DNA from: an uncultured Pirellula sp.
GTDB taxonomy: Bacteria; Planctomycetota; Planctomycetia; Pirellulales; PNKZ01
NCBI GenBank assembly: GCA_964633125.1
Contig: CAZWDN010000003.1
Coordinates: 1 to 57,101 of the forward strand
Reading direction: 5' to 3'
Length of the DNA stretch: 57,101 nt
The notes beneath the pieces are model-generated. The model saw only the letters and a program-made list of their open reading frames with translations, made no database searches and was not told the DNA's origin. The position numbers and the translations under genes were made by a program. Of the stretch, positions 2,459-41,634 are shown piece after piece. How positions within the stretch are numbered: position 1 is the first letter of the stretch; each line of letters begins with the position of its first letter.

Positions 2459-4225
2459 ATGTCGGTCGTACGTCGTTACTTCGAAGTCTTCTGTTTGTCG
2501 ATGGTGCTCGCGGGAACGGGCGAAGCGATCGCCTATTCCGCGGAGCCGAGCGACGCGGCCTTTCGCGCGAGCTTGGCGGCCGGCGAGTTTTCGACGGCGC
2601 TCGCCGTCGCCGAAAAGCTTCCGGCAGCCGAACGCGACGCGGCTTTGCGCGATTTGGCGGCCGCGCAGAATCAGGTCGGCGCCGGCGGCGCGTCACTGGC
2701 CACCGTCGCCGCGATTCGCGACGATCGCCTGCGCCAAGACGTACTCGGACAAATGTTCGGCCAGACGTCCGGCACCGGCGGCGGCTTCGCCGGGGATGCG
2801 AACGGGGCGAATCACGGCAACGCGCTCGGAGGAGGCGTGCAGCCCGACTTCGATTCCTTGATCGAACTCATGGAGTCGACCATCGCGCCGGAAACTTGGC
2901 GCACCGCCGGCGGCACGCAAGGCGAGGTGAAATCACATGCCGGCGGCGTATTTGTCGACGCACAAGGCGCGATGCGGCCGATTGTGAACGGCGTCGAACT
3001 CGCCGGGCTGGCGGCGCTACGACGCGACGCGGCCCGCGGCGCGGAGTCCTCGAACGTCCGTCGGCCGTCGCAACTCCGCAAAGTTTCCCTGACGCGGCTG
3101 GAACGCGAGCTACAAATTCGTGCGGCGCGGGGATTGCCGATCGAGGAAGAACTGCAAGCGCTCGCCGGGCTGCAGAAAATCCAATACGTTTTCGTCTACC
3201 CGCAGTCGGGCGACGTGGTGCTCGCCGGCCCCGCGGGCGATTGGTATCTCGGCCGCGAGAACCGCCGCTTGTCCGTGGAAAATGATCGCCCCGTCGTGCT
3301 GCTCGACGATTTGATTACGCTGCTGCGCCGCGAGTTCGCCGCCGGCGGCGAATTCGGCTGCTCGATCGACCCGACCGCCGAGGGTATCCGGCGGCTGACG
3401 GCGTTCGTGACGGAGTCGAACAAGAAGCCGCTCGCGCCCGGCGGCCGCGGCAAATGGACCGACGAACTCGGCAAGCGGCTCGGCACGCAAAACGTCTCGA
3501 TCACGCGCATTGATCCGACTTCGCACGCGGCGCAGGTGCTCGTCGAAGCGGACTACCGCATGAAGCTCCTCGGCATCGGCAAGGAAGAGAGCATCGTGCA
3601 GGTGCCGAGCTATTTGCAGATTGTGGCCGACTCGAAGCCGAAGCAGCCGCCGGCCTTGGACCTGGTGCGCTGGTGGTTCACGATGAATTACGACGCGCTG
3701 TTGACCTCGGCCGAACACGACGTCTACGAGCTGCGAGGTACCGGCGTAAAGCTCTTGGGCGAAAACGAATTCCTCGCGGCCCGAGGAGAGCGCGTCGGCA
3801 CAGGCCAAGCGAACACCGCGAACCAGCTCTTCGCCGCCAACTTCACGACGCACTTCGCCGCGCTGGCCCGGAAGTATCCGATCTACGCGGAGCTGCAAAA
3901 CATCTTCGATTTGGCGCTCGTGGCGGCCGTACTGAAGCACGACGGCGTCTGCGATCGGATCCAATGGCGACGCACCGGGTTGATGAGCCCGGCGGTCTAC
4001 CAAGCCGAGCAATCACCCGCGCCGCGGACCGTGGAAACGGTCGCGGCGAGCCGGGAGTTGTCGCGAACGCTGATCCTCGCCACGGCCAGCGGCGGCGTGA
4101 CCGTCGACGTCGCTTCGATCGCACGGCCGGAAGCCATGCAGATCGACGACCGCGGGCAACTCACGAAAGTGCGACAAAGCCAACGCCCGACGAACGTGCC
4201 CGCACGCGGCTGGTGGTGGGACTAA
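2459..4225 (+). CDS. DUF1598 domain secreted protein (planctomycete-type)
   Basis: AGGAGG SD then ATG 2459 and a signal peptide. Motifs LDDLITLLR, FGCSIDP, EADYRMK, RWWF and YAELQNIFDLALVAA; ends WWD. Confidence 0.7.
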   Translation: MSVVRRYFEVFCLSMVLAGTGEAIAYSAEPSDAAFRASLAAGEFSTALAVAEKLPAAERDAALRDLAAAQNQVGAGGASLATVAAIRDDRLRQDVLGQMFGQTSGTGGGFAGDANGANHGNALGGGVQPDFDSLIELMESTIAPETWRTAGGTQGEVKSHAGGVFVDAQGAMRPIVNGVELAGLAALRRDAARGAESSNVRRPSQLRKVSLTRLERELQIRAARGLPIEEELQALAGLQKIQYVFVYPQSGDVVLAGPAGDWYLGRENRRLSVENDRPVVLLDDLITLLRREFAAGGEFGCSIDPTAEGIRRLTAFVTESNKKPLAPGGRGKWTDELGKRLGTQNVSITRIDPTSHAAQVLVEADYRMKLLGIGKEESIVQVPSYLQIVADSKPKQPPALDLVRWWFTMNYDALLTSAEHDVYELRGTGVKLLGENEFLAARGERVGTGQANTANQLFAANFTTHFAALARKYPIYAELQNIFDLALVAAVLKHDGVCDRIQWRRTGLMSPAVYQAEQSPAPRTVETVAASRELSRTLILATASGGVTVDVASIARPEAMQIDDRGQLTKVRQSQRPTNVPARGWWWD

Positions 4226-4258
4226 AGCCGGGCGCGTCCTTGTCGAACAGGGCCGACC

Positions 4259-5212
4259 TTAGGTGAAGGCGGCCCGTATCTCGGCGAGGAACTTCGGACA
4301 GACTTCGCGCGGGTCTTCATCCTCTTCGTATTCCAATACGATGTAGCCGCGGTAGCCGGCCTCGCGCAGAATCTTCGCCAAACGCGGCATGTCGACCGGC
4401 TCTTTCTTAGCCGTCTTTCGATCGCCGCGTTGCATCACCACCTTGACTTGCGCGTTGATCGCATACGGAGCGATTTGCTCCAACTCGGCGTAGGGATCGT
4501 CGGAATGAAAGTTCCCCGAGTCGAAGTTGATGCCGAGCCAGGGACTTTTTACGTCCTTCACCAGCTTGAGCAAGCCTTGCGGCTCGGCGGTGAGGCCGCC
4601 GTGGTTCTCCAAGGCGAGAAACACGCCGTGCTTGCCGGCGTAGTCACAGCATTCTTCAATGGCCGCGACCGCCAATGCGTGAGCCTGGGCTTCCGTTTGC
4701 CCCTTGTGAACGCTGCCGGAGAAGATGCGTATCACCGGCGCGCCGAGAATTTCGGCGTAGTCGATCCAATTCTTCGTGTAAGCGATTTGCTTGTCACGGT
4801 CCGGACCTTTGTCGTAGGTGAATTCGTTGCCGACGGCGGTGCCCGTCACGTCGAGGCCGAGCTTGAAGCACAGGGCCTTGAGCGAACGCAGATACACGGG
4901 CGTCGGATTTTCCGGAAAATAGTACGACGTCAGCTCGGTGCCGTCGCAGCCGAACTTGGCGCAGTCGGCGACGAAGTCTTCGATGGTCAGCGTCGCTTGC
5001 GGAGCGCCTGCGGGCTTCTTGCCGCGCGAGCTAGGCAAGAAGTTGCGATAACTGTACGCCGCCAAGCTAAATTTAAACTTCGCTTGGCCGTTGCGCGCGA
5101 CGGGTTCGACGGCGTGCGCGGCCCGCGGGGTATCAAACATTCCGGCCAGCGAAAGCCCGGCGGCTGCGGCAGCGGCCGAGGTGAGAAACCCGCGTCGTTC
5201 GATCGAGGCCAT
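4259..5212 (-). CDS. Sugar phosphate isomerase/epimerase (xylose-isomerase-like TIM barrel) with Tat signal
   Basis: RRGFL Tat motif; LALENHGG, NFDSGNF and IVLEYE metal-binding motifs. Confidence 0.85.
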   Translation of the reverse strand: MASIERRGFLTSAAAAAAGLSLAGMFDTPRAAHAVEPVARNGQAKFKFSLAAYSYRNFLPSSRGKKPAGAPQATLTIEDFVADCAKFGCDGTELTSYYFPENPTPVYLRSLKALCFKLGLDVTGTAVGNEFTYDKGPDRDKQIAYTKNWIDYAEILGAPVIRIFSGSVHKGQTEAQAHALAVAAIEECCDYAGKHGVFLALENHGGLTAEPQGLLKLVKDVKSPWLGINFDSGNFHSDDPYAELEQIAPYAINAQVKVVMQRGDRKTAKKEPVDMPRLAKILREAGYRGYIVLEYEEDEDPREVCPKFLAEIRAAFT

Positions 5213-5317
5213 GGCTGCTGCTCCGAGAGTCTACAAGTCGGTGAATGCGCGCATCTGCGACGCCGGGCATTATCGCTCGATTCGCGGAGCCGCTCAAGCG
5301 TCGAAAACGGGATCGGC

Positions 5318-6283
5318 TTAGTGCGCGGCGGCTGCGGAAGCGTCAGCGGTTCGCCGACTTAGAATCGCTTGCCATTGCTCGGCCGAAACGAACGACAGGC
5401 CGCAGCAGAACATCGCGACGCAAAACGGCACGAGGCCCGTCAGCACGGCCGTGCCGATCCAGACCGGGATACTCCAAGCGACGAGCAGCGGCCGCGCGGC
5501 ACGGTTCCAAATCAGAACGGCGAACGCCAGATAAAAGAGAATCAGCGACGCTGTCCAAATGTTGATTACATAAGGAAACTGGTACAGCCACCGCAAGTCG
5601 ATGAGGCACGACTCTGGTCGGGCGATAAGCCACCAGACGGCGGTGCCGTTCCACCACACCGCGTTGTATTGCAACGTAGCGCAGAACATCAAGAAGTAAA
5701 TCAGCGACGTGTGGACCTGGATGAGCCGGGTGCTGACCGTCGCCGCATACGCCGGGCGGGCGACGAGCAACGAAGGGTTCGCCGCGCGACGGCGCCAGGC
5801 ATCAATCGAGAGACACGCGCCGCACGGCCCGAAGCAAAGGTAGAACAGCAGCAGCGCGACGACCGGCTCGCCGACGCTCGTGAGCATCGGCCCGCGATGG
5901 AAGTAGGCGAGAAACACGACCAGCGACAAAACCGACGTGATTCGCGTCCAAAGTCCGAGCGTGAAGGCTGCGAGAATCGCCAAGCCGGCGTAGTGCATGG
6001 CCTGCAGGCTGCCGGAATCGGGCGCAAAATCGAGATACGAGAATCGCGTCGACGTGGCCGACGGATAGAGCCGCTCCAGCATCGAAACGCTGACGATGCC
6101 GCTCGGTCCGAAATAGCGGAGCAGATCAAAGCTAAACGTGAGGATCATCCAAAACGCGACTGAGCCGGCGCCAATCCGGAGCATGGCCAAGGGAAGCGGC
6201 TGCGACGGGGTGAACCAGAACCGATTCCAACCGTCGCCAAAGTTGCGAGCCGTGGTGCCGAGGTACCGTGAAACAGCGCTCAT
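5318..6283 (-). CDS. HTTM-domain membrane protein (vitamin K-dependent carboxylase/SdpB-like)
   Basis: Multi-TM protein with LRI, LGLWTR, LSIDAW, RLIQVH..LIYF and WWNGTA motifs. Confidence 0.75.
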   Translation of the reverse strand: MSAVSRYLGTTARNFGDGWNRFWFTPSQPLPLAMLRIGAGSVAFWMILTFSFDLLRYFGPSGIVSVSMLERLYPSATSTRFSYLDFAPDSGSLQAMHYAGLAILAAFTLGLWTRITSVLSLVVFLAYFHRGPMLTSVGEPVVALLLFYLCFGPCGACLSIDAWRRRAANPSLLVARPAYAATVSTRLIQVHTSLIYFLMFCATLQYNAVWWNGTAVWWLIARPESCLIDLRWLYQFPYVINIWTASLILFYLAFAVLIWNRAARPLLVAWSIPVWIGTAVLTGLVPFCVAMFCCGLSFVSAEQWQAILSRRTADASAAAAH

Positions 6284-7044
6284 GGCGTCCCTCCGGCCGG
6301 AGCAGTTGCCCCGGGAACGGCGGGGGCGGCGACGCTCGGAGCCGCGGAGTTCGAGGCCTCGCCAACCCGCGTCACCACCACGGCCTTGTCTTTCGTCACG
6401 GAAGCCAGCACTTCGTAAACCGTCTGAAAGTTGCTCGGGTCATCCCGTTCGACCTTGAGCACGCCGGTTCGCTCCAGTTCCTCCGGCGTCATCATGTAAT
6501 TCGGAAGCAAGCGGCGGCGAAAGCGGAGCTTCACCGGCATTGTTTGGGCGAGTTCGATGCAGTTGTTTTCGACGATGAGTCGCCGAGCAATTCCCTCGGC
6601 CAGCACGCCGGCGGCGTCGTTCTGGTTTTCCCCCTCCATGCCCGTCACATGCATGAGCCGCTCCAACCGTCGAAATCGCTGGCCGTGCAGATCGTCGCGG
6701 TTCGGCAACACCACGAGTTTTGTCGATCCGTCGGGCTGTGGAATGTCGGCCTCGACGAAGAAATCCGTGTCGGTGAGCGGGTAGGTCGCTACCGGCGACG
6801 GGTCGTAGTAGGTGAAATGGAACATATAGGAAAGATCCATCCCCAAGAGCTGCAGATACGGCCGAAGCCCCGGCACCTTATTTCGCAGGTCCTGCTCTAA
6901 GCCGGAGGAGTCGGTTCGCGACTTGATGCCGATGAGCAAAAAGAAGAAGTGCAGAAAGATTAGGTAGGTAATCACACCTCGCACGCCGGACGACGGCATA
7001 CCGTCAGGCGTCGGGTCGGTTGCCGGGGGTTCGGCGGAAGGCAT
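6280..7044 (-). CDS. Hypothetical membrane-anchored protein, probable HTTM partner (SdpA/DUF5819-like)
   Basis: One N-terminal TM (YLIFLHFFFLLIGI). Its stop overlaps the HTTM start (ATGA). The family assignment comes mainly from context. Confidence 0.55.
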   Translation of the reverse strand: MPSAEPPATDPTPDGMPSSGVRGVITYLIFLHFFFLLIGIKSRTDSSGLEQDLRNKVPGLRPYLQLLGMDLSYMFHFTYYDPSPVATYPLTDTDFFVEADIPQPDGSTKLVVLPNRDDLHGQRFRRLERLMHVTGMEGENQNDAAGVLAEGIARRLIVENNCIELAQTMPVKLRFRRRLLPNYMMTPEELERTGVLKVERDDPSNFQTVYEVLASVTKDKAVVVTRVGEASNSAAPSVAAPAVPGATAPAGGTP

Positions 7045-7156
7045 GGAGAGCGCTACTCGCAATTGAGCGGTTCGAGGTCGTGACGGAACTATCTATCGTA
7101 ATCGCCGGCCGCGAACTGCCGAAGTTTTTCCGCCGCGGAAACAACGTGCAAAACAG

Positions 7157-7190
7157 AAAAAGCCGGGCCTCACGAGGAGACCCGGCTTTT
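7157..7190 (-). terminator. Intrinsic terminator
   Basis: Minus-strand RNA GCCGGGUCUC-CUCGU-GAGGCCCGGC-UUUUU, about 60 nt after the stop at 7253. Confidence 0.8.
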
Positions 7191-7252
7191 CGCGGGAATC
7201 AGGGGCGACCGGCGCTTCAGGGGTGCGCCGATCGCCGTCTTATCAGCAGGGA

Positions 7253-7720
7253 CTACTTAGCCGGAGCGGCAGCGGGAGCGGCCGGCTTCGGGGCCGGGGC
7301 AGCCGGAGCAGCCGGGGCGGCCGGAGCAGCGCCAGCGCAGCTCGGGGCAACCGGGGTGCAGCAAGCCGGTTCGCAGCAGGCCGGAGCACCGCAGCAAGCC
7401 TTTTCACCGCAGCAGCGTTCACGAAGACGAGCGAGCAGGCCCTTGCGGCCGCAGCACGGTTCGTTGCAGCAGGTCGGTTCCGGAGCGCCGCAGCAAGCCT
7501 TTTCGCCGCAGCAACGATCACGCAGACGGCTGAACAAGCCGCCACGGCAACCGCAATCCGAGCAATCCGAACCGCTGCAACCACCATCGCAACCACCGTC
7601 GCAACCGCTGCAACCATGGCAACCGTGACCGGCGACGGCCACATTCTTCTCACCGCCGACGAGGGCGATGCCGACGACCGCGAAGAAAATCGCGATACCA
7701 AAACAAAGAACACGATTCAT
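7253..7720 (-). CDS. Secreted Cys-rich protein with Pro/Ala tail (155 aa, 26 Cys)
   Basis: GGAGG SD before ATG 7720, hydrophobic N-terminus, GC/DGGC repeats, and a duplicated L..RLR.RCCGEKACCGAP unit. Confidence 0.8.
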   Translation of the reverse strand: MNRVLCFGIAIFFAVVGIALVGGEKNVAVAGHGCHGCSGCDGGCDGGCSGSDCSDCGCRGGLFSRLRDRCCGEKACCGAPEPTCCNEPCCGRKGLLARLRERCCGEKACCGAPACCEPACCTPVAPSCAGAAPAAPAAPAAPAPKPAAPAAAPAK

Positions 7721-7918
7721 TCTAAACTCCTCCAACAAAAAACTGGTACGTACCACGCAAATCAATTTGCCGTCTTCTTCCCGCATCCCGCTTTGCGACG
7801 GCAAAACATTCGGGAGCGTAAACGTCTAGCGTTGGTGCAATCGTTGCCGGCAACGAACCCTGATGTGAGCCTTTTCCGATTGCATATTCTGCACCTGAGT
7901 GCACAGGCTAGGATGGAT

Positions 7919-7946
7919 AAGTTAGCATTGAGGGTCGTGTTGTCAA
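7919..7946 (-). promoter_or_regulatory. Sigma70-type promoter
   Basis: Minus strand TTGACA-N16-TAACTT with an extended -10 TG (TGcTAACTT), pointing at the gene starting at 7720. Confidence 0.55.
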
Positions 7947-8056
7947 GAATCAAAAGGCCCGACTGGATGCAATGCGCTGAAAGCGTATTCTGGGGGCAAT
8001 AAGTGAAATTGTCCTACTAGCTTACCACGCCCCTCGTTCGGTGCGGCCCAATGCGC

Positions 8057-8095
8057 AAAAAAAAAGGCGATCCACGAGTACTCGTGGATCGCCTT
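8057..8095 (-). terminator. Intrinsic terminator of the lipoprotein gene
   Basis: Perfect 32-bp palindrome aaggcgatccacgagt|actcgtggatcgcctt ending in a 9-U tract on the minus strand. A second 9-bp hairpin lies at 8109-8133. Confidence 0.85.
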
Positions 8096-8143
8096 CTCGA
8101 ATGCGTCCTAAGCCCTTTAACAACAAGGGCTTATTATACAAAT

Positions 8144-8980
8144 CTACTTAAGCTGTGGAGCGCCGGGAAGCTCCGGCTGTTGTGCTTGAAGCGTGCCGTT
8201 TCCGCTCGTGGCAGTTCCCGAAGAAAACCCAGAAACCGGCTGGACGCTGCCACCCTGCCCACCGGCAGGAATTCCCCCGGCATTTTGCACTGTCCCGCCC
8301 GGAAGCGTCGGTGTGCCGCTCGACATGGCGCCGGGCGTCGGATTCAGCGTCGGCGTCGAACCATTGGTTTGCTGCGTCAATCCGGCGGGGGTCGTTGCTG
8401 TTGTTGTTGCAGTCGTCGCCGTTCCTGCGGTCGCCGTGCCTGCCGGCTGACCGCCGTTCAGGCGACGTTGGTATTCCTGCTCCGCCAACTGCGTCTGCTT
8501 AACCATGTCTTCCGGGTTCTCGAAATCGAGTTGAAGAAAAGGCATATCCGGATACGGTTGCGTGGCGACGCCGCCGATGCGCCATTGCCCCTTGTCGAGC
8601 CGCATGGCCCAAACGAAATCGTTCACTTCCGGCTTGCCGTCCGGGCCGACATCCGTCCAGCGGCTTTCGACGTAAGCGAGTTGTCCTTGCTCGGCGACTT
8701 CCGTGGCCCCCACTTCGAACTTTGCGGTGGGGCTTCCCGGCGGAGCGACCATCAGATCCATGGCCCGCGTCTTCTCGCGAGCTAAGTCGGTGAGCATCGC
8801 TTCGGCTCCCTTATCGTTGCCGGTGCGAACCGACTCCAGGAACTGAAACACCACCGTGTGCGGCGGAACTTGCGGCGCCGCCGGAGCAGCCGGGGCTCCC
8901 GCATTCTCTTCCGACTTACTGCATCCCCAAGCAACGCAAAGCGCTGCCGCCAACATTCCCGTCGTTGCGATCCTTCGCAT
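8144..8980 (-). CDS. Hypothetical lipoprotein with Thr/Gly/Pro-rich tail
   Basis: Signal peptide with lipobox VAWGC, a globular alpha/beta core, and a low-complexity C-terminus. Confidence 0.7.
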   Translation of the reverse strand: MRRIATTGMLAAALCVAWGCSKSEENAGAPAAPAAPQVPPHTVVFQFLESVRTGNDKGAEAMLTDLAREKTRAMDLMVAPPGSPTAKFEVGATEVAEQGQLAYVESRWTDVGPDGKPEVNDFVWAMRLDKGQWRIGGVATQPYPDMPFLQLDFENPEDMVKQTQLAEQEYQRRLNGGQPAGTATAGTATTATTTATTPAGLTQQTNGSTPTLNPTPGAMSSGTPTLPGGTVQNAGGIPAGGQGGSVQPVSGFSSGTATSGNGTLQAQQPELPGAPQLK

Positions 8981-29299: not shown

Positions 29300-29680
29300 G
29301 CAATCCTCTCGGCAACCGCGATTCGTAGAAGGTACTCGGAATTTCGTCGAAGCACGAACGCCCGAATGCCGACACGCGGGCCGGGATAGGGATTCGACCA
29401 CAAACCTACATCACGGCGGTGGGGCGTCAAAATCCAATGTTGTAATCCGCACACGGCGGCAATCCACCGCGGCGCGGACGATGGCCGACGGCGAGGATTG
29501 TAACGGTCATGCCGCACGCAAACCGCGAGCAGTACCGCAGTCCTGTGAGAAGCCGTGGAACGTTCCAGAATCTTGAGCATGCGCTTTAGTGAAAGCTAGA
29601 GTTGACGCGGACGAATTCGCGCCACGCTCCGACGGAGGGTGTCCTGCGGACTTCGCACACTACTATTCAGGTTCAGTTCC

Positions 29681-30751
29681 ATGTTCTCCGAACGTCGCAA
29701 AAACTTTCGTTCGCCGGTCGTCGGCACTCGGGAAGCGAATATCATCTTCGGCAAGACCAATTTGTCCGTGCGACTCATCGACGAGTCGGCCGGCGGACTG
29801 AAGGTCACGTCGGAGGCGATGCCTAGTTTCACCGAAGGCGCGCAGGTGGAACTAGAGACGGACGACGGCGATCTGTACCGGATGGAAGTCATCCATATCG
29901 AACAACGGGGCCTCTGCTCCCAGATCGGCCTACGGCGGCTGCAAACCCTGACGCACAACGGCAAGAACGTCGACGCCGGACCGCAGAGGGAGCCTCGGAA
30001 AGGCCTGCGAGTCGCGTTGTTCGTCGGCATCGGGTTGCTCGTCGGCATGGGTGCTCAAGCGGAGCCGATTCGGCGACAACTCGTCAAAGTGCCGGGCTTT
30101 TCCAAAGTTTTCAGCGCGCCGGACGACAAAGGCGGCCCGGTCGGCCCTAAGATCAGCGCCGGGCTGCGGGATCGCCTTCGTCATAGCTTCGACATCGACT
30201 TGTTCAGCGAACCCGAAATGTCGGTGCTACTGCGGTTACGGCCCGAGCAACAGGGCAAGATCACGAGCGTGATTCAAGCCAAGAACTCGGTGCTGAAGCC
30301 GAGCGTGCCGAAGTCGCAACAAGCGGCCATTTTGTACATTACTCAAATGGCCATGCTCGGCGTGCTCGACACCGAACAAAAGTACCGCCTCGAGTCGTTG
30401 ATGGAGCACACGATCGGCGCGACCGATCTGCTGCAAAAGCTCGTCATGCAGTATTGGCCGACCGCAGACGCCGAAGAGTTGTATCGCCGACTTGGCGCTC
30501 CGGCCCTAGCGCTTCCGCAAATGGCCGAGCATCTCAAGATGGATGAAAAGCAACTTCGCGCCATTCGCACGATCATCGACGAAGCGCTCGACAAATCCGA
30601 GCACCTTTATCGACAAGGGAAGGCGGACAACGCCGACAGTCAACTCCTCATCGAAGCGTTCGGCTATCTCGACGACGCCCAGCAAAAGTGTTTGGCGGTG
30701 CTCAATCCCGAACAACGGTCGATCGTCGAAAGCCTGAGCGAGAAAAAGTAA
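29681..30751 (+). CDS. PilZ-like domain + TM + helical (Spy/CpxP-like) domain protein
   Basis: RKNFR (RxxxR) and DESAGG (DxSxxG), a TM segment, and four L.xEQ/KQ helical repeats. Confidence 0.55.
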   Translation: MFSERRKNFRSPVVGTREANIIFGKTNLSVRLIDESAGGLKVTSEAMPSFTEGAQVELETDDGDLYRMEVIHIEQRGLCSQIGLRRLQTLTHNGKNVDAGPQREPRKGLRVALFVGIGLLVGMGAQAEPIRRQLVKVPGFSKVFSAPDDKGGPVGPKISAGLRDRLRHSFDIDLFSEPEMSVLLRLRPEQQGKITSVIQAKNSVLKPSVPKSQQAAILYITQMAMLGVLDTEQKYRLESLMEHTIGATDLLQKLVMQYWPTADAEELYRRLGAPALALPQMAEHLKMDEKQLRAIRTIIDEALDKSEHLYRQGKADNADSQLLIEAFGYLDDAQQKCLAVLNPEQRSIVESLSEKK

Positions 30752-30773: not shown

Positions 30774-31265
30774 TTAAAGCGTGCGATCGTAGACCCCTTC
30801 TTGCCCTTCGCATTCGTCGACGATGACGCGCAGCCGCTCTGGCCGATATCCCGATGCGGCCGCGAGACGAGTGAGCAACGATTCGGCAATGTGCTTTGCC
30901 AACAGTTCCGCCGTGGTTTGCACGAGAGGCAGGAGCACGCAATCTTGTCGGGGAAAAACCCACCGGCGATCTTCGAAACGGACGACGACCTCACGCTCGT
31001 CCGCCTCGACGCGAATCCGCGGATGTTGCGTCGGCAGCAGCATGTGGTGGTCGAGCTCCAATACGATCGCTTTGAGCGTATCGCGCAGCGCAATAAAATC
31101 GACGACGTATTCGTTCTCATCCAGCGGGCCGAATACTTCGACGGCCGTGCGATAGTTATGGCCGTGCAAACGTTCGCAAATATTTCCCGCGAACGTGATG
31201 AAATGCGCCGCCGAAAAGACGAGTTCCGTCTTCCGCAGCCGAACTGAATACGACTCTTGCGGCAT
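30774..31265 (-). CDS. queD: 6-pyruvoyl-tetrahydropterin synthase / QueD family (COG0720), CExxHGH variant
   Basis: FSAAHF, CERLHGHNY, VVDF, LDH and TTAELLA motifs. Confidence 0.85.
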   Translation of the reverse strand: MPQESYSVRLRKTELVFSAAHFITFAGNICERLHGHNYRTAVEVFGPLDENEYVVDFIALRDTLKAIVLELDHHMLLPTQHPRIRVEADEREVVVRFEDRRWVFPRQDCVLLPLVQTTAELLAKHIAESLLTRLAAASGYRPERLRVIVDECEGQEGVYDRTL

Positions 31266-31298
31266 TGCTCACGACTCCCGTGTCAAACTGACTCTCAA

Positions 31299-32192
31299 TT
31301 ATAGCTGAAGCGGTCGCGGAACTCCGCCGGTCAGCAACAAGACAAATAACGCCGCGGCGATTAGATCAGCCGTCGTGCCGGGGTTGCGACGATGCCCGTC
31401 GCTGCGCAGCCAGAAATCAAAGTCGGCAAGCGACTGATGAAACGCCTCTTCGCCGAACTCGGCGGCCTGTAAAACTTGATCGGCTCCCTCGGCGACTTGC
31501 TGCGCCATGCCGGCGCCGCACTTGCGGGCAATGAGCGAGTCGGGTAGCTGCCGCAGTAAGTGGAGTTGCGTACGGATGACGGCGTCCGACAGGCCGCGGC
31601 CCGCGGCGATTTCCTGTTCCAGATACGGCACGACGAGATCAAACAAGTCGGCGAAGCCGTTCACATACTGCCGGGCAATCGCGTCGCGATCCGCGGCCAG
31701 CCGCATGGCGTGCAACAGATCGGCGGGGGGCGATTCGGCGACGTCGGCCTCGTCCACACGCCCCATGCCGCCCGGATTCGCCAACCCGATCGCGGCATAA
31801 ACCTGCGCTGCGTCATCCCGATTCAAATCGGCCAGCACGCTGCGAAGCCCGACTCGAAGCAGATCGGGCGAACGTCCGGCGGTCGTCGCGGCAGCCAACG
31901 GAGCGAACAGCAGCACGATCCCGAGGTTGACGTTAGTCGCCGTGAACCGACGCGTTGCGGCCACGGCGTTGTAAACGGATTGCCCGACGGGCGCGCCGGA
32001 CGCTGCTCGTTGCATGGCCGGCCCGATCGCCACGGCGGCGGCGGCGAAGTCGGCGAAAGTAAGGTCGGCGAAGTCTGCGCCGCGATGCACGTTACCCGGC
32101 TTCGGCACAATCACTTCGAGCAAGCATGCGAGCGTCGCACATTGGCCGACGTCGAGCGGCGAAGTCCCGTCGAGTGCCGTCGCAAGATTCAC
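31299..32192 (-). CDS. citG: Triphosphoribosyl-dephospho-CoA synthase family (CitG-like, methanopterin-cluster type)
   Basis: ACLLEV..PKPGNVH, NVNLGIVLL, DSLIARK.G and NPGTTADL motifs. Confidence 0.85.
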   Translation of the reverse strand: MNLATALDGTSPLDVGQCATLACLLEVIVPKPGNVHRGADFADLTFADFAAAAVAIGPAMQRAASGAPVGQSVYNAVAATRRFTATNVNLGIVLLFAPLAAATTAGRSPDLLRVGLRSVLADLNRDDAAQVYAAIGLANPGGMGRVDEADVAESPPADLLHAMRLAADRDAIARQYVNGFADLFDLVVPYLEQEIAAGRGLSDAVIRTQLHLLRQLPDSLIARKCGAGMAQQVAEGADQVLQAAEFGEEAFHQSLADFDFWLRSDGHRRNPGTTADLIAAALFVLLLTGGVPRPLQL

Positions 32193-33127
32193 TCTCCTAC
32201 CCCCGCCGCCAGACTCCCCACCGGCCCCTTTTCGCGCGCGAGAAACGTGCTCAACAGCGGCACAATTTGCTCATACGCATCTTCAATGACGTAATGTCCG
32301 GCGTCGGCGAACCGGTGGACCTCGGCCTGTGGAAAAAAGCGGCGAAAACGCTCGAGAAACTTCGGCGTGAAGCACCAATCGCGCATGCCCCACGCCAACA
32401 TGACCGGCTTATCCGACAACCGAGCCAACCCCGCTTCAACGCCGGTCAGCGTCGCATAGCTCGGGTGGGTCGGAGCCAGCGGAATGTCCTGCACAAATCG
32501 ATGCACGGCTACGCGATGTTCGTAATTGTCGTACGGCGCTAAGTAGCCGGCCCGCACTGCCGCTGTGAATCGCTCCGGCTTTTCCGTGGCCATCACCAGC
32601 GCCGCACGGGCGAAAAGATTCAACCCGCGCACGCCCCAGGCGCCGAGGCCCGGAATACGGCAAACGCGTATGCGCCACGGACAACGCTCGCCGTGGAATG
32701 CTCCGGTGTTGAATAATGCCAAACGCGTGAACCGCTCCGGCATCTGCCCCGCCGCGCCGAGCCCGATGGCCCCGCCCCAATCGTGGGCCAGCAGCGTGAT
32801 GTTGCGCAAGTCGAGCGTTTCAATCAGTTGTCGCAGGTTCGCGATGTGGTCGGCGAGCCGGTACGCATAGTCTTGCGGCTTTTCTGAAAGTCCACAGCCC
32901 AGATGATCGAGCGCCACGACGCGCGACTGATCGCGAAACTCGGCGATGATCTTGCGCCAATAGAACGACCAAGTCGGGTTGCCGTGGACGCAAAGCAACG
33001 TCGGCGGCGAATCGGAACCGCGGGAGTTCGTCGCAATCGGCCCTTCGTCGAGATAGTGCAGTCGCCCCCCCGGCACATTCAGAAAATGTGAGGTAAAGGG
33101 GTACTCATCTTGCCAGTGGTCGCTCAC
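32189..33127 (-). CDS. Alpha/beta hydrolase, haloalkane dehalogenase/OleB-like
   Basis: HGNPTWSFYW, DHLGCGLS.KP, HDWGG (Asp nucleophile), WGMRD and AGHY motifs. Confidence 0.85.
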   Translation of the reverse strand: MSDHWQDEYPFTSHFLNVPGGRLHYLDEGPIATNSRGSDSPPTLLCVHGNPTWSFYWRKIIAEFRDQSRVVALDHLGCGLSEKPQDYAYRLADHIANLRQLIETLDLRNITLLAHDWGGAIGLGAAGQMPERFTRLALFNTGAFHGERCPWRIRVCRIPGLGAWGVRGLNLFARAALVMATEKPERFTAAVRAGYLAPYDNYEHRVAVHRFVQDIPLAPTHPSYATLTGVEAGLARLSDKPVMLAWGMRDWCFTPKFLERFRRFFPQAEVHRFADAGHYVIEDAYEQIVPLLSTFLAREKGPVGSLAAGVGE

Positions 33128-33356
33128 GTACCGAAATTCCAGCAGTTCTGCGACACTGCCCGCCTTGCCGAAAGCGGCGACCGGTCGTGACGATTGTAGG
33201 TAGACGAAGGGAAAGTTGGTCGATCCGGCTCATCTTCCCGAGGTTGCCCGCTTTTCTTTTCGCAACCATAGCGGAGAATTGACCAAGTCCCCAGTATATC
33301 GACCGGCTAGAACGGCGACCAGCGACGGCTCTGGGCCGTAATTTCGGAGAGCGATC

Positions 33357-35522
33357 GTGAGCGAGCAAGAGTTTCTTCCCGAGCATTTTCTCAACCGCGA
33401 ATTGAGCTGGCTGGAGTTCAACCGGCGCGTTTTGGAAGAAGCAGAATCGCCCGACGTTCCGCTGCTGGAGCGCGTGAAGTTTCTGTCGATCTTTAGTTCC
33501 AACCTCGACGAATTCTTCATGGTGCGCGTCTCCGGCCTGCGCGAACAGGCGTTTGAAGATGGCGCTCCCCAAGACTACTCCCCCGACGGCCTACGACCGT
33601 TGCAACAGTTGGAGCGAATAGCCCAACGCACCAAGGAACTCGTGGCGGCGCAATATCGTTGCTGGAATGAGCAAATCGTTCCGCAACTGGCCGACCAGAA
33701 GATCCGCATTCTGACGCCGAGCCAGCTAGCGCCCGAGCATCATGCGATCCTCGATAAGTTTTTCAACGAGCGGGCCTACCCGATTCTGACGCCGATGGCG
33801 GTCGACCCCGCGCATCCGAGCCCGCGGTTTCATAACCGCGGCTTGTATTTGGCGGCGCGTTTGCGGCGGCACTCCGGCTTAGGACCCAAGAACCTCTTCG
33901 GCGTAGTGCAATTGCCGCAGGTGTTGCCGCGATTGGTGACGCTGAGCCAAGGGGAAGAGCAGCTCTACATTATGCTGGAAGACGCCGTCGGCATGCGACT
34001 GGCGGAACTCTTCGGCGGCGCCGAAGTGGTGAACCACACCTACTTTCGCGCGACGCGCGACAGCGATATCGAACTGCTGGAACAAGAAGCCGACGACATG
34101 TTGCAGGTGATCGAAGATCGCCTCAAGGCGCGGCAGCGCGGGCAGGTCGTGCGATTGGAAGTTTCCGCCGACGGCGACGAGGAGTTGATTCGCGAAATCG
34201 TCGAGCCGGAGAACGTTCGCGAGGGAAACTCCGGCGATGCGTATAGCGAAGTTTATCGCATTCCCGGCCCGCTCGATCTGACGGCGCTCACGGAACTGCT
34301 GAAGATGCCGGGGCGCGAGCATCTGCGCGACGTGCCGTTTACGCCGCAGCAGCCGCGCGGCCGCGGCCAACGTGGCAAAGAAGATTTGTTCACGGCCATT
34401 CGCCGGCACGACGTTCTTCTCCACCATCCGTACGACGCGTTCGATGCCGTCGTCGAGTTCGTCAGCAAGGCGGCGGTCGACCCGAACGTGTTGGCCATCA
34501 AGCAGACGCTCTACCGAACGAGCGGCGATTCACCCGTAACGCGGGCTCTGATCCAGGCCGCGGAGAACGGCAAGCACGTCACGGCGCTCGTGGAACTCAA
34601 AGCCAGGTTTGACGAGGAGAACAACGTCGGCTGGGCACGAAAGCTCGAACGGGCCGGCGTACACGTAGTGTTCGGCTTTCTCGACCTGAAAACACACTGC
34701 AAGCTTTCCCTAATCGTGCGGCAGGAAGGTCAAACGCTGCGGCGCTACGTGCATCTCGGCACGGGCAATTACAACCCCAATACGGCACTCATCTATACCG
34801 ACCTGGGCCTGTTTACCGCCGACGAAGAGACGACGGCCGACGCTTCGGCGCTGTTCAATTTGCTCACGGGATATTCGCAAGGGCACAAGTGGAAAAAACT
34901 CGTCGTCGCCCCGACCGACTTGCATCGGCGCACGGTCGAACTCATTGAGGAGCAAACGCGGCGCGCCAAAGAAGGCTTGCCGGCGCGGATATTGGCGAAG
35001 CTCAATTCACTGGTCGATTATCGCGTGATCGAAGCGTTATATCGTGCGGGCCAAGCCGGCGTGCCCGTCGATCTCATCATCCGCGGAATCTGCGGATTGC
35101 GTCCCGGCATTCCCGGCTTCAGCGAAAACATTCGGGTTCGCAGCGTCGTCGATCGGTTTCTAGAGCACAGCCGTATTTACGTGTTTGGCCCGCAAGAAGA
35201 CTGCCGCATCTACTTGGCCAGCGCCGATTGGATGCCGCGCAATTTCTACCGGCGCGTGGAAGTGATGTTCCCCGTCGAGGCGCCTGATTTGCGAGAGCGC
35301 ATTCTCGGCGAGATCCTACCGGCTTACTTGCGCGATAACGTGAAGGCCCGGATCGTGCAGCCCGACGGCACGCATACCCGCGTGACGATCGGTGAGCATG
35401 AGACGCGACATCGCTGCCAGGAAGAACTGTTGGCGGTTCGCCCCGGCATGCTGCCGATCGAAGCGAACAGCATCGAGTCCAACGGCGCAGCGGCGTTTGC
35501 GGCCGCGATCCGCGACTCCTAA
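33357..35522 (+). CDS. ppk1: Polyphosphate kinase 1
   Basis: NRELSWL.FN.RVL, NLDEFFMVRV, IKQTLYR, ELKARFDE, KTHCK, HLGTGNYN, RFLEHSR and ADWMPRN motifs. Confidence 0.97.
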   Translation: MSEQEFLPEHFLNRELSWLEFNRRVLEEAESPDVPLLERVKFLSIFSSNLDEFFMVRVSGLREQAFEDGAPQDYSPDGLRPLQQLERIAQRTKELVAAQYRCWNEQIVPQLADQKIRILTPSQLAPEHHAILDKFFNERAYPILTPMAVDPAHPSPRFHNRGLYLAARLRRHSGLGPKNLFGVVQLPQVLPRLVTLSQGEEQLYIMLEDAVGMRLAELFGGAEVVNHTYFRATRDSDIELLEQEADDMLQVIEDRLKARQRGQVVRLEVSADGDEELIREIVEPENVREGNSGDAYSEVYRIPGPLDLTALTELLKMPGREHLRDVPFTPQQPRGRGQRGKEDLFTAIRRHDVLLHHPYDAFDAVVEFVSKAAVDPNVLAIKQTLYRTSGDSPVTRALIQAAENGKHVTALVELKARFDEENNVGWARKLERAGVHVVFGFLDLKTHCKLSLIVRQEGQTLRRYVHLGTGNYNPNTALIYTDLGLFTADEETTADASALFNLLTGYSQGHKWKKLVVAPTDLHRRTVELIEEQTRRAKEGLPARILAKLNSLVDYRVIEALYRAGQAGVPVDLIIRGICGLRPGIPGFSENIRVRSVVDRFLEHSRIYVFGPQEDCRIYLASADWMPRNFYRRVEVMFPVEAPDLRERILGEILPAYLRDNVKARIVQPDGTHTRVTIGEHETRHRCQEELLAVRPGMLPIEANSIESNGAAAFAAAIRDS

Positions 35523-36590: not shown

Positions 36591-37082
36591 TCATTTCGAC
36601 GTCCGATCTTCACGTACGAAATGCCCGCTGCGCCCTCCCGACTTCTCTTCCAGCCGAACTGCGTCGATCGTCATCGTACGATCGACGGCCTTGCACATAT
36701 CGTAAACCGTGAGCGCCGCCACGCTCACCGACGTGAGCGCCTCCATTTCCACGCCGGTTCGCCCTGTGCAACGGACCGTTGCCTCGATGCCCAGCGTCGC
36801 GTCGTCGAGAAACGTAAAGTCCAACGTCACTCCGTCCAGCGGCAGCGGATGACAGAGCGGAATCAGGTCGCTCGTCTTCTTCGCGGCCATGATTCCGGCC
36901 AGTCGCGCCACTTCCACGACGTCTCCCTTGCGATGCCCGCGCGTGCGAATTAATTCCAGCGTCGCGGGCTGCATCACCACATGCGCGGAAGCCCGAGCAA
37001 CACGGACGGTAACCGGTTTCTCCGCCACATCGACCATGCGAGCCGCTCCCGAGGCGTCGAAATGCGTGAGCTCGTCAGTCAT
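36591..37082 (-). CDS. moaC: Cyclic pyranopterin monophosphate synthase MoaC
   Basis: [36 protein letters not shown] and KSGGRSG motifs. Confidence 0.97.
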
Positions 37083-37307
37083 AAGGCACATCCGTCGGGC
37101 AAGCTATCTGCACCGGTTATCGTATCGACCACGGAATCCGAATGAGCTTGTGAATTCTTTCACACACCACCCTAAAGGCAAAGGGGGTGCGCCGATGTTT
37201 GTTTGCTCGCCATGACGGAACTCCTAGCCGCAGCGACAGATACGACTTTCGCCAAGCACGGTTTATTGTAACCGTTGCCGGCACGTCGTCGAGTGGACGG
37301 AGGAGCG

Positions 37308-39958: not shown

Positions 39959-40609
39959 ATGACGACGGACCAAATCGCCGCCGATGCCGCTGAAGGGACC
40001 CCGCTCTCCGATATGCAAGCTCGCAAGAAGATCATCCGCGAGCAGGCCCACGCGGCCCGTAATGCCCTGCCGAACAAGGATGAATTGAGCCAGGGGATCT
40101 GCGAAAAGTTCGTCGCCCTGCCCGAATACGCCGCCGCTAAGACGGTGATGTATTACGTCGACGTCCGGAGCGAAGTTCGCACACGGCACTACCTGGCAAC
40201 GGCTCTGACGCACGGCAAGCGGATCGTGGTGCCCTATTGCGTCGACGGGGAGCTGGAACTGTTCCTGTTGGAAGACATGAACGAATTGGCCGTCGGCATG
40301 TACAAGATTCTCGAGCCGCGAGTTGAGCTGCGCGACCTTCCGGCCAAGAAGATTCGGCCCGACGAACTCGATCTGATCATGGTGCCGGGCGTCGCATTCG
40401 ATCGTCGCGGCGCCCGCACGGGTCACGGATTCGGGTACTACGACAAGCTGCTAGAACACTCGCGGATGGATTGTCCGCTCGTGGCCTTGGCATTTGAATG
40501 CCAAATGTTTCCGGAAATCCCGACGATGCCGCACGACATCTTCATGGACAAAATCATTACGGAATCCGCCGTTTACGAACGGCAAATTCCCGGCCGTCGT
40601 GGCGAGTAG
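39959..40609 (+). CDS. 5-formyltetrahydrofolate cyclo-ligase family protein
   Basis: EVRT, YKILEP, DLIMVPGVAFD..G.R.G.G.GYYDKLL and HDIFMD.IITE motifs. Confidence 0.92.
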   Translation: MTTDQIAADAAEGTPLSDMQARKKIIREQAHAARNALPNKDELSQGICEKFVALPEYAAAKTVMYYVDVRSEVRTRHYLATALTHGKRIVVPYCVDGELELFLLEDMNELAVGMYKILEPRVELRDLPAKKIRPDELDLIMVPGVAFDRRGARTGHGFGYYDKLLEHSRMDCPLVALAFECQMFPEIPTMPHDIFMDKIITESAVYERQIPGRRGE

Positions 40610-40692
40610 CGCGGTCGATTGTTCAACAGCCTCGGGTATACGCCCGAGGCTGTCGATAATCCAAGGTTTTCGACGTGGATTGAGGCAGCAAC

Positions 40693-41634
40693 ATGAGCGA
40701 CGAACGCTTCCAACGCTTGGTCGACGACACCTATGCCGAGGCCTTCCGTAGCATCTACGCGGAGGTACTGATCACGGCTCGCGATCGCACCTGGCTCGAC
40801 CACGCGGTACAAGCGGCGACGGGTAACGCCTCGAGCACGATTTTCTGCGACTGCGAAGCGGGGCTCGATCGCTACGTCGGCCCCGGCGGCGATGAATCGT
40901 TCGCCACGCCCGACGGCCGCCCCGGAGCGATCGTGCAATTCCACGTTCCACGCTTTCACAAAGATCGGGCCGCGAGACTCGAGCGTTCGTTGTTGGTGCG
41001 GCTGAGCCAGAACGTGCTCACCTGCCCGACGGCCGCGTGCTTCAACTTGCTCGACACGGAAGAGTATTTCAAGCTCGGTCGCAAGATTGCGTTCTTCGGC
41101 GACGGCCACCAAAAACGAGCCGTACGGCACGGCCGGCGAGTCTGGGTGATTCCGATTCTCGGCGGCGAGTTCATGCTCGACCGGCGCTTCGGCTTTCGCG
41201 ACGGTCTCATGGGAGGCAACGTTTGGTTTTTCGGCGATTCGGTCGATTCGGCCCTGGATGCGGCCTGCCGAGCACGTGATGCTGCGGCAGCAACGCCGGG
41301 CGTCATCCTGCCGTTTCCCGGCGGCATTGCCGGAAGCGGTTCGAAAGCCGGGAGCCGCTATTCGTTTTCTATCGCCAGCACGTACGCCGAATTCTGCCCG
41401 ACGCTGCGGGAAGAACTCGGCGAGCGCTCCAAGCTGCCGGCCGGAGTCGCTAGCGTGATGGAGATCATCCTGAACGGTCGTGATTTACCGACGATTGCCG
41501 AGGCGACGCGCCGCGCCGTGGAAGCGGCCCTCGACGCGCCGGGCCTGGTTCGAATTTCCGCAGGCAATTACAGCGGCCGTCTCGGCAAGAGCTTCATCTA
41601 TCTCTACCCGGAACGCCAACTCGCTGCGACATGA
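40693..41634 (+). CDS. ftr: Formylmethanofuran:tetrahydromethanopterin formyltransferase (Ftr/FhcD)
   Basis: DDTYAEAF, TPDGRPG, QNVLTCPT.A.FN, FGDG, PFPGGI..SGSK.GS.Y, EI..NG and ISAGNY.G.LG motifs. Confidence 0.93.
   Translation: MSDERFQRLVDDTYAEAFRSIYAEVLITARDRTWLDHAVQAATGNASSTIFCDCEAGLDRYVGPGGDESFATPDGRPGAIVQFHVPRFHKDRAARLERSLLVRLSQNVLTCPTAACFNLLDTEEYFKLGRKIAFFGDGHQKRAVRHGRRVWVIPILGGEFMLDRRFGFRDGLMGGNVWFFGDSVDSALDAACRARDAAAATPGVILPFPGGIAGSGSKAGSRYSFSIASTYAEFCPTLREELGERSKLPAGVASVMEIILNGRDLPTIAEATRRAVEAALDAPGLVRISAGNYSGRLGKSFIYLYPERQLAAT

Follow-up and report, generated by a model that had tools for sequence, protein, structure and literature searches.

Methylotrophic bacteria carry genes of the tetrahydromethanopterin (H4MPT) pathway in clusters of the order mch-orf5-orf7-fae (PMC3615186), and Methylomonas DH-1 has three consecutive genes for a methenyl-H4MPT cyclohydrolase, an alpha-L-glutamate ligase and a triphosphoribosyl-dephospho-CoA synthase (PMC11533326), a trio that corresponds to mch-orf5-orf7. 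Within COG0720, the motif CxxxHGH marks PTPS-I and QueD, and ExxHGH marks PTPS-III; the combined form CExxHGH is a documented QueD/PTPS-III hybrid which can serve both pathways, and archaeal PTPS-III has been described as feeding methanopterin (PMC5041015). Planctomycetes are listed among the phyla that contain olefin biosynthesis (ole) genes (PMC7158056), and the OleB of Xanthomonas falls in haloalkane dehalogenase subfamily III (HLD-III), whose members have low dehalogenase activity and a debated natural role (PMC10503415). The window analyzed here, a stretch of 57,101 nucleotides from contig CAZWDN010000003.1 of an uncultured Pirellula sp., contains a three-gene operon in which relatives of all three groups stand together: an alpha/beta hydrolase, a CitG-family protein and a PTPS protein. 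Its features are as follows.

33127-32189, minus strand: P0001, alpha/beta hydrolase, predicted oleB, 312 aa (Pfam, NCBIfam, PDB match, co-occurrence with OleA)
32192-31299, minus strand: P0002, CitG-family gene, predicted Orf7 type, 297 aa (Pfam CitG, co-distribution with Fae and Mch)
31265-30774, minus strand: P0003, predicted PTPS-III, COG0720 paralogue of the CExxHGH type, 163 aa (Pfam PTPS, match to 1Y13)
32189-32192, minus strand: GTGA stop/start overlap of oleB and the CitG-like gene (read off the sequence)
31178-31158, minus strand: codons of CERLHGH, with C30, E31, H34 and H36 (read off the sequence)
33128-33356: 229 bp between oleB and the divergent ppk1, where the promoter of the three-gene operon is presumed to lie

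The locus is best explained, with a probability of roughly 80%, as a chimeric operon in which genes of three separate known pathways are transcribed together. The initial annotation had described the three reading frames on the minus strand, the GTGA overlap and the CERLHGH motif, all of which were confirmed on the sequence, and had proposed that the operon feeds the pterin precursor of methanopterin and folate. This proposal stands for the predicted PTPS-III and the H4MPT-linked CitG-like gene but not for the hydrolase, which appears to be OleB. The genes are arranged head to tail. The TGA stop of the hydrolase overlaps the GTG start of the CitG-like gene (32192-32189), so that the two are translationally coupled, and 33 nt separate P0002 from P0003. 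Translation of the CitG-like gene probably begins at the GTG of position 32192, since the next in-frame start codon falls inside the Pfam CitG domain. For comparison, 40 relatives from the window's order were used (41 genomes with the source genome, which is 95.4% complete in 682 contigs), together with 251 planctomycete genomes, evenly sampled and each at least 90% complete. When one genome per species was scanned, 599 relatives of the hydrolase were found, and the best 80 loci (43-61% identical) were examined.

P0001 matches Abhydrolase_1 of Pfam with 112 bits and is the sole such hydrolase gene in the source genome. In NCBIfam the closest models are those of haloalkane dehalogenases, every one of them below cut-off (NF002873, 160 against 466; NF002938, 141 against 241; NF002043, 145 against 265), and a bona fide cluster-encoded OleB shows the same sub-threshold profile. 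The best PDB match is DhmeA, an HLD-III protein (8CKP/8OOH, E 5e-46). The catalytic pentad as defined in DhmeA (PMC10503415) was mapped onto P0001 by motif, giving N50 in HGNP, D116 (codon 32782-32780) and W117 in HDWGG, D250 and H278. All five residues are invariant in an alignment of P0001 with hydrolases encoded in canonical oleABCD clusters; the comparison with OleB covers these cluster-encoded hydrolases and DhmeA. Several homologues with 62-65% identity bear the JGI name cis-3-alkyl-4-acyloxetan-2-one decarboxylase, which is the name of the OleB enzyme, and the closest homologues are named after metagenome-assembled genomes (MAGs) of Pirellulales, Planctomycetia and Thermoguttaceae, which places the source organism in this group of planctomycetes. 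We conclude that P0001 is OleB, the predicted cis-beta-lactone decarboxylase of the olefin pathway. DrbA of Rhodopirellula baltica may be its orthologue.

The initial annotation had set an olefin role aside because no oleA, oleC or oleD lay nearby. None of the three was found in the immediate flanks of the operon, which hold ppk1 and a PilZ-like gene instead. They lie elsewhere in the source genome. OleA is encoded on contig C147 (NF006720, 431 bits against a cut-off of 285), while OleC and OleD are encoded on contig C157 by genes with a stop/start overlap. Among named families, the latter two score best against olefin beta-lactone synthetase (542 bits) and 2-alkyl-3-oxoalkanoate reductase (365 bits), and they are 46% and 48% identical, respectively, to oleC and oleD products of a canonical planctomycete oleABCD cluster. 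Canonical ole clusters are present in the planctomycete genomes G124 and G217.

The hydrolase is distributed like OleA and OleC and not like CitG. Among the 40 relatives, hydrolase, OleA and OleC are jointly missing in two genomes, G031 and G036; any other gaps fall in assemblies that are fragmentary or incomplete. Fae, Mch, CitG and PTPS are still present in G031, and G024 keeps the hydrolase after the loss of Fae, Mch and CitG. In the phylum sample the hydrolase and OleA occur in 87 genomes each, in 84 of them together, leaving 3 with the hydrolase alone and 3 with OleA alone. CitG is present in 27 genomes of this sample; 67 of the 87 genomes with the hydrolase lack it, and 7 of the 27 genomes with CitG lack the hydrolase. 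In 42 planctomycete genomes oleA lies directly upstream of the hydrolase gene on the same strand, its end within about 200 bp. Outside the window's order no adjacency of hydrolase and CitG genes was found in the 251-genome sample, and in the sister family within the class they lie at distant positions. Among the best 80 loci of the wider scan, 49 have OleA, OleC or OleD beside the hydrolase (Desulfobulbales, Chloroflexota, Verrucomicrobiota, Myxococcota, Acidobacteriota and others) and 17, all of Pirellulales type, have CitG and/or PTPS; none has both. No conserved neighbor was found at the loci where the hydrolase stands alone (L017-L024, from relatives). The suggestion that the hydrolase is an unassigned methanopterin or folate step rather than an olefin enzyme is disfavored by the presence of oleA, oleC and oleD, by this distribution, and by the relatives of other lineages that sit inside canonical oleABCD clusters.

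Some hydrolase copies in the relatives are irregular. The match in G002 (C10:101741-102680) is in two overlapping pieces, possibly through a frameshift or an assembly error, and those in G008, G028, G029 and G037 have single in-frame stops in the aligned range, which may reflect pseudogenes or alignment overhang. G026 has a second, adjacent oleA-oleB pair on contig C82 (L028, 4095-6031) in addition to its oleB-citG-PTPS copy; this second hydrolase is just 37-40% identical to P0001, suggesting a separately acquired ole cluster, and the contig stops short of oleC.

P0002 has a full-length Pfam CitG domain (PF01874, 235 bits). Both CitG/MdcB equivalogs fail (TIGR03125, 32.5 against 272; TIGR03132, 37.3 against 282), their matches being confined to the C-terminal 110 residues. 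The gene is present in a single copy and CitX (PF03802) was not found in the source genome, which makes a canonical role with citrate lyase or malonate decarboxylase unlikely. The identification as a true CitG/MdcB (triphosphoribosyl-dephospho-CoA synthase, EC 2.4.2.52) was rejected on these grounds.

A link between the CitG homologue and H4MPT, already proposed in the initial annotation, was upheld by its distribution. G024 and G036 lack the CitG-like gene as well as Fae and Mch, and they are exactly the good-quality relatives without Fae and Mch; the remaining gaps in CitG-like genes among the 40 relatives fall in fragmentary or incomplete assemblies. In G024 oleB is followed by PTPS and is still beside ppk1, with citG cleanly gone (gap of about 12-45 bp). 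G031 has no hydrolase, and there ppk1 adjoins citG-PTPS-mch, with fae 10 kb downstream. The cluster order of methylotrophs agrees with this pattern. By its distribution and neighborhood, P0002 is a predicted Orf7-type homologue tied to H4MPT biosynthesis. By analogy with CitG, it is presumed to be an ATP-dependent triphosphoribosyl transferase.

Another gene pair of the window touches on the same cofactor. At 39959-41634, 7-8 kb from the operon, a 5-formyltetrahydrofolate (5-formyl-THF) cyclo-ligase gene lies directly upstream of the gene for Ftr (formylmethanofuran:H4MPT formyltransferase), and the domain content of the pair was confirmed.

P0003 matches Pfam PTPS (PF01242, 72 bits) and has the active-site motif C30-E31-R-L-H34-G-H36. 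The CxxxHGH of QueD is present within it, and its score against the QueD model TIGR03367 is 66.3 bits, under the cut-off of 89.25. In a PDB sequence search the closest solved relative is the Plasmodium falciparum PTPS (1Y13, E 2e-20, 76 bits); the alignment extends over the full length, long insertion included, and E31 falls on the Glu of the Plasmodium motif FRETLHGH. QueD structures reach 30-34 bits and align with the N-terminal half alone. The source genome has exactly two COG0720 genes, P0003 and a paralogue (CKYLHGH) on contig C342. The paralogue adjoins a queC-like gene, and its QueD model score of 83.3 is just below the cut-off and above that of P0003. Since this separate QueD paralogue exists, a dual I/III role of P0003 is not needed.

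FolB shows a complementary distribution, although as a single event. The folB gene was not found in the source genome (95.4% complete) nor in 39 of the 40 relatives, and the only one of the 41 genomes with FolB, G037, is also the sole genome without any form of P0003. Orthologues of P0003 with 51-92% identity occur in 38 of the 40 relatives, and G036 has only a 39%-identical form. All close relatives share CERLHGH, G031 has CEPVHGH and G036 has AEAVHGH; in the QueD paralogues the Cys stands without the Glu. PTPS is retained in G024 and G036, which lack H4MPT genes, and is therefore not H4MPT-specific. As G037 shows, FolB can serve an H4MPT-containing relative equally well. CExxHGH had been taken in the initial annotation as the mark of a PTPS-III that bypasses FolB, and this interpretation holds on the motif rule (PMC5041015), the Glu alignment with 1Y13, the failure to find folB, the pattern of G037 and the separate QueD beside a queC-like gene. 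On our reading, P0003 is a PTPS-III that replaces FolB and is predicted to convert dihydroneopterin triphosphate to 6-hydroxymethyl-dihydropterin. Its neighbor genes suggest that it may also feed methanopterin. Pribat et al. in 2009 reportedly placed planctomycetes among the folB-lacking phyla with PTPS-III. The window has one more gene for a GTP-derived pterin, moaC of molybdopterin biosynthesis (36591-37091, minus strand), 3.5 kb from the PTPS and CitG genes; its proximity is probably coincidental.

The three-gene order is not a chance feature of the source genome. About 24 of the 40 same-order relatives have the three genes side by side and about 12 more have them partly so, and hydrolase and citG adjoin in about 31 of the 38 relatives with both genes and in 13 of the 80 wider loci. 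The linkage of hydrolase and citG, which by the initial annotation would have counted as a refutation had it been unique to this genome, is conserved across the order; it is still confined to this lineage, and the two genes are lost independently. Two natural deletions, oleB-PTPS without citG (G024) and citG-PTPS without oleB (G031), show that the oleB and citG modules are separable. The arrangement is order-specific and old, the proteins having diverged to about 50% identity. In four more distant MAG loci of Pirellulales, Planctomycetaceae and Thermoguttaceae (L055, L057, L058 and L063) PTPS-III (43-54% identity) comes directly after the hydrolase without an intervening CitG, as in G024.

The flanks of the operon are less stable. 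Upstream lies the divergent ppk1 (33357-35522; open reading frame map and Pfam) and downstream a convergent PilZ-like gene (29639-30751), with fliG beyond. Of the relatives, G021, G024 and G031 alone have ppk1 adjacent, and the 80 wider loci show it in no case. As a neutral-synteny control ppk1 was therefore rejected: it fails to show that the block is merely inherited, and if anything the three-gene unit outlasts its flanks. A consensus promoter and terminator scan of the operon gave no signal above shuffled background, and the promoter would lie in the 33128-33356 region.

A second junction of ole and H4MPT genes is found on contig C157 (L039). At 3644-8245 it carries mch (TIGR03120, 388 bits), a RimK/MptN-like ATP-grasp gene (orf5-like), an OleC-like gene and an OleD-like gene, whose ends overlap or abut. 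The same contig begins (4-3660) with a gene for a protein with adenylation, carrier and thioester-reductase domains, like those of nonribosomal peptide synthetases (NRPS); it is cut by the contig end, and at its 3' end it shares 17 nt with the start of mch. Downstream of oleD, both on L039 (8450-11438) and at the canonical oleABCD cluster of the distant G124 (L047, 7199-9501), there is a KAS-like gene (VITGxGLT) with a gene for a CrtI/amine-oxidase-like flavoprotein. These two genes may be planctomycete ole accessory genes. The KAS-like gene of the source genome is interrupted by a run of N.

Under the preferred explanation of a chimeric operon, the hydrolase (OleB) would decarboxylate the cis-beta-lactone made by OleA, OleD and OleC to a long-chain cis-olefin, with Asp116 as the predicted nucleophile, His278 as base and Asp250 as acid, together with Asn50 and Trp117. 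The ole genes are dispersed, with oleA on C147, oleC-oleD on C157 and oleB in the window. The Orf7-type CitG homologue presumably moves a triphosphoribosyl group from ATP in the synthesis of the methanopterin side chain. PTPS-III would make 6-hydroxymethyl-dihydropterin directly in place of the missing FolB and is presumably the pterin source for both folate and H4MPT. Both chimeric operons may have arisen by recombination of an mch-orf5-orf7(-PTPS) operon with an ole cluster. After such a fusion the downstream genes would depend on the upstream promoter, which alone would favor retention, and the gene order was probably kept through this dependence and not through a role of the hydrolase in pterin metabolism.

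Alternatives that give the hydrolase a different function fit the data poorly. It could belong to a single pathway with its neighbors, as a methanopterin or folate step that processes, for example, the product of the CitG-like protein, and the GTGA coupling, the frequent adjacency to citG (in about 31 of the 38 relatives with both genes and in 13 of the 80 wider loci) and the poor dehalogenase activity and debated natural role of HLD-III proteins (PMC10503415) would suit such a step. This is very improbable, because G024 keeps the hydrolase without Fae, Mch and CitG, G031 has Fae, Mch, CitG and PTPS without hydrolase, OleA and OleC, and most hydrolase-bearing genomes of the phylum sample have no CitG (67/87; the converse in 7/27). 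The genes are also far apart in the sister family, and relatives with 43-55% identity sit in oleABCD clusters. That P0001 is a true HLD-III haloalkane dehalogenase and P0003 a second QueD is likewise given very little credence. HLD models head the NCBIfam matches of P0001, HLDs dominate its PDB matches, and P0003 does carry CxxxHGH; yet the HLD equivalogs are far under cut-off, a cluster-encoded OleB scores alike, and the hydrolase co-occurs with the ole genes. P0003 for its part lies below the QueD cut-off, the C342 paralogue beside the queC-like gene scores higher, and Plasmodium PTPS-III is its best match by sequence (76 bits against 34 for QueD).

It is harder to set aside selection on the gene order itself. 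The pathways could be separate and both chimeric operons kept by selection for co-regulation of olefin and C1/pterin metabolism, the coupling being regulatory and not catalytic. Two independent ole/H4MPT junctions kept across an order diverged to about 50% identity, the persistence of the unit while its flanks change, and the oleB-PTPS adjacency that stays without citG (L055, L057, L058, L063 and G024) speak for this. One old recombination followed by promoter dependence could, on the other hand, explain both junctions, the arrangement occurs in one lineage, the two pathways stay separate in other planctomycetes that have both, and the modules are lost independently; co-regulation is accordingly judged unlikely. 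A coupling of the expression of olefin synthesis to methanopterin/pterin C1 metabolism by both operons, in its extreme form with the hydrolase acting on an H4MPT intermediate, is rated as quite unlikely.

Several observations weigh against the chimeric operon kept by promoter dependence. In none of the 17 distant loci that keep the oleB-citG(-PTPS) unit is ppk1 adjacent, so the unit outlasts its flanks, and the order mch-x-oleC of the second junction (mch-ATP-grasp-oleC-oleD) is kept in more than 20 relatives; two conserved junctions and a unit that outlasts its flanks leave room for selection for co-expression. The identification of the ole genes is affected by the absence of an OleB model from NCBIfam, and OleC and OleD of the source genome do not reach their equivalog cut-offs. 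We know of no biochemical demonstration that an Orf7-type CitG homologue acts in H4MPT synthesis. Gene functions are predicted throughout, with the olefin and cofactor chemistry of this organism drawn from comparative genomics. Independent losses within the order are few (ole in 2 genomes, H4MPT in 2, FolB in 1), and its genomes are related and hence not independent samples.

All three genes belong to families that are known and already reported from this lineage, and the locus is no new kind of system; only its mixed gene order is out of the ordinary. Genes of unrelated pathways are joined here by translational coupling and order-wide synteny, which calls for caution in guilt-by-association annotation. 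The natural deletions in G024, G031, G036 and G037 offer comparative support for a role of Orf7-type CitG in H4MPT synthesis and for PTPS-III as the probable FolB replacement in planctomycetes. The results also suggest that the HLD-III dehalogenase-like proteins of Pirellulales-type planctomycetes are the OleB of a dispersed ole pathway.

Each gene of the operon can be set beside a described counterpart. P0001 resembles OleB of Xanthomonas campestris (EC 4.1.1.114) and the HLD-III proteins DhmeA, DrbA and DmbC in its fold and its Asn/Asp/Trp/Asp/His pentad, and it shares 43-55% identity with hydrolases whose genes lie between oleA and oleC in many phyla. It differs from known OleB in that its gene is detached from oleA, oleC and oleD and translationally coupled to an H4MPT gene. 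P0002 resembles the methylotroph Orf7 (COG1767) in its CitG Pfam domain, its co-occurrence with fae and mch, and its neighborhood, with mch adjoining in G031 and ftr 8 kb away in the window; unlike Orf7 of methylotrophs, it is apart from mch-orf5 and sits between oleB and PTPS-III. P0003 resembles the P. falciparum PTPS-III (1Y13) in the aligned Glu of ExxHGH and the long insertion common to both, in a genome in which folB was not found, and with its additional Cys (CExxHGH) it also resembles the hybrid PTPS-I/III proteins (PMC5041015). It differs from the hybrids in that the source genome has a dedicated QueD paralogue, and from known PTPS-III in that its gene has an H4MPT gene as its neighbor, which for bacteria would suggest that it also feeds methanopterin.

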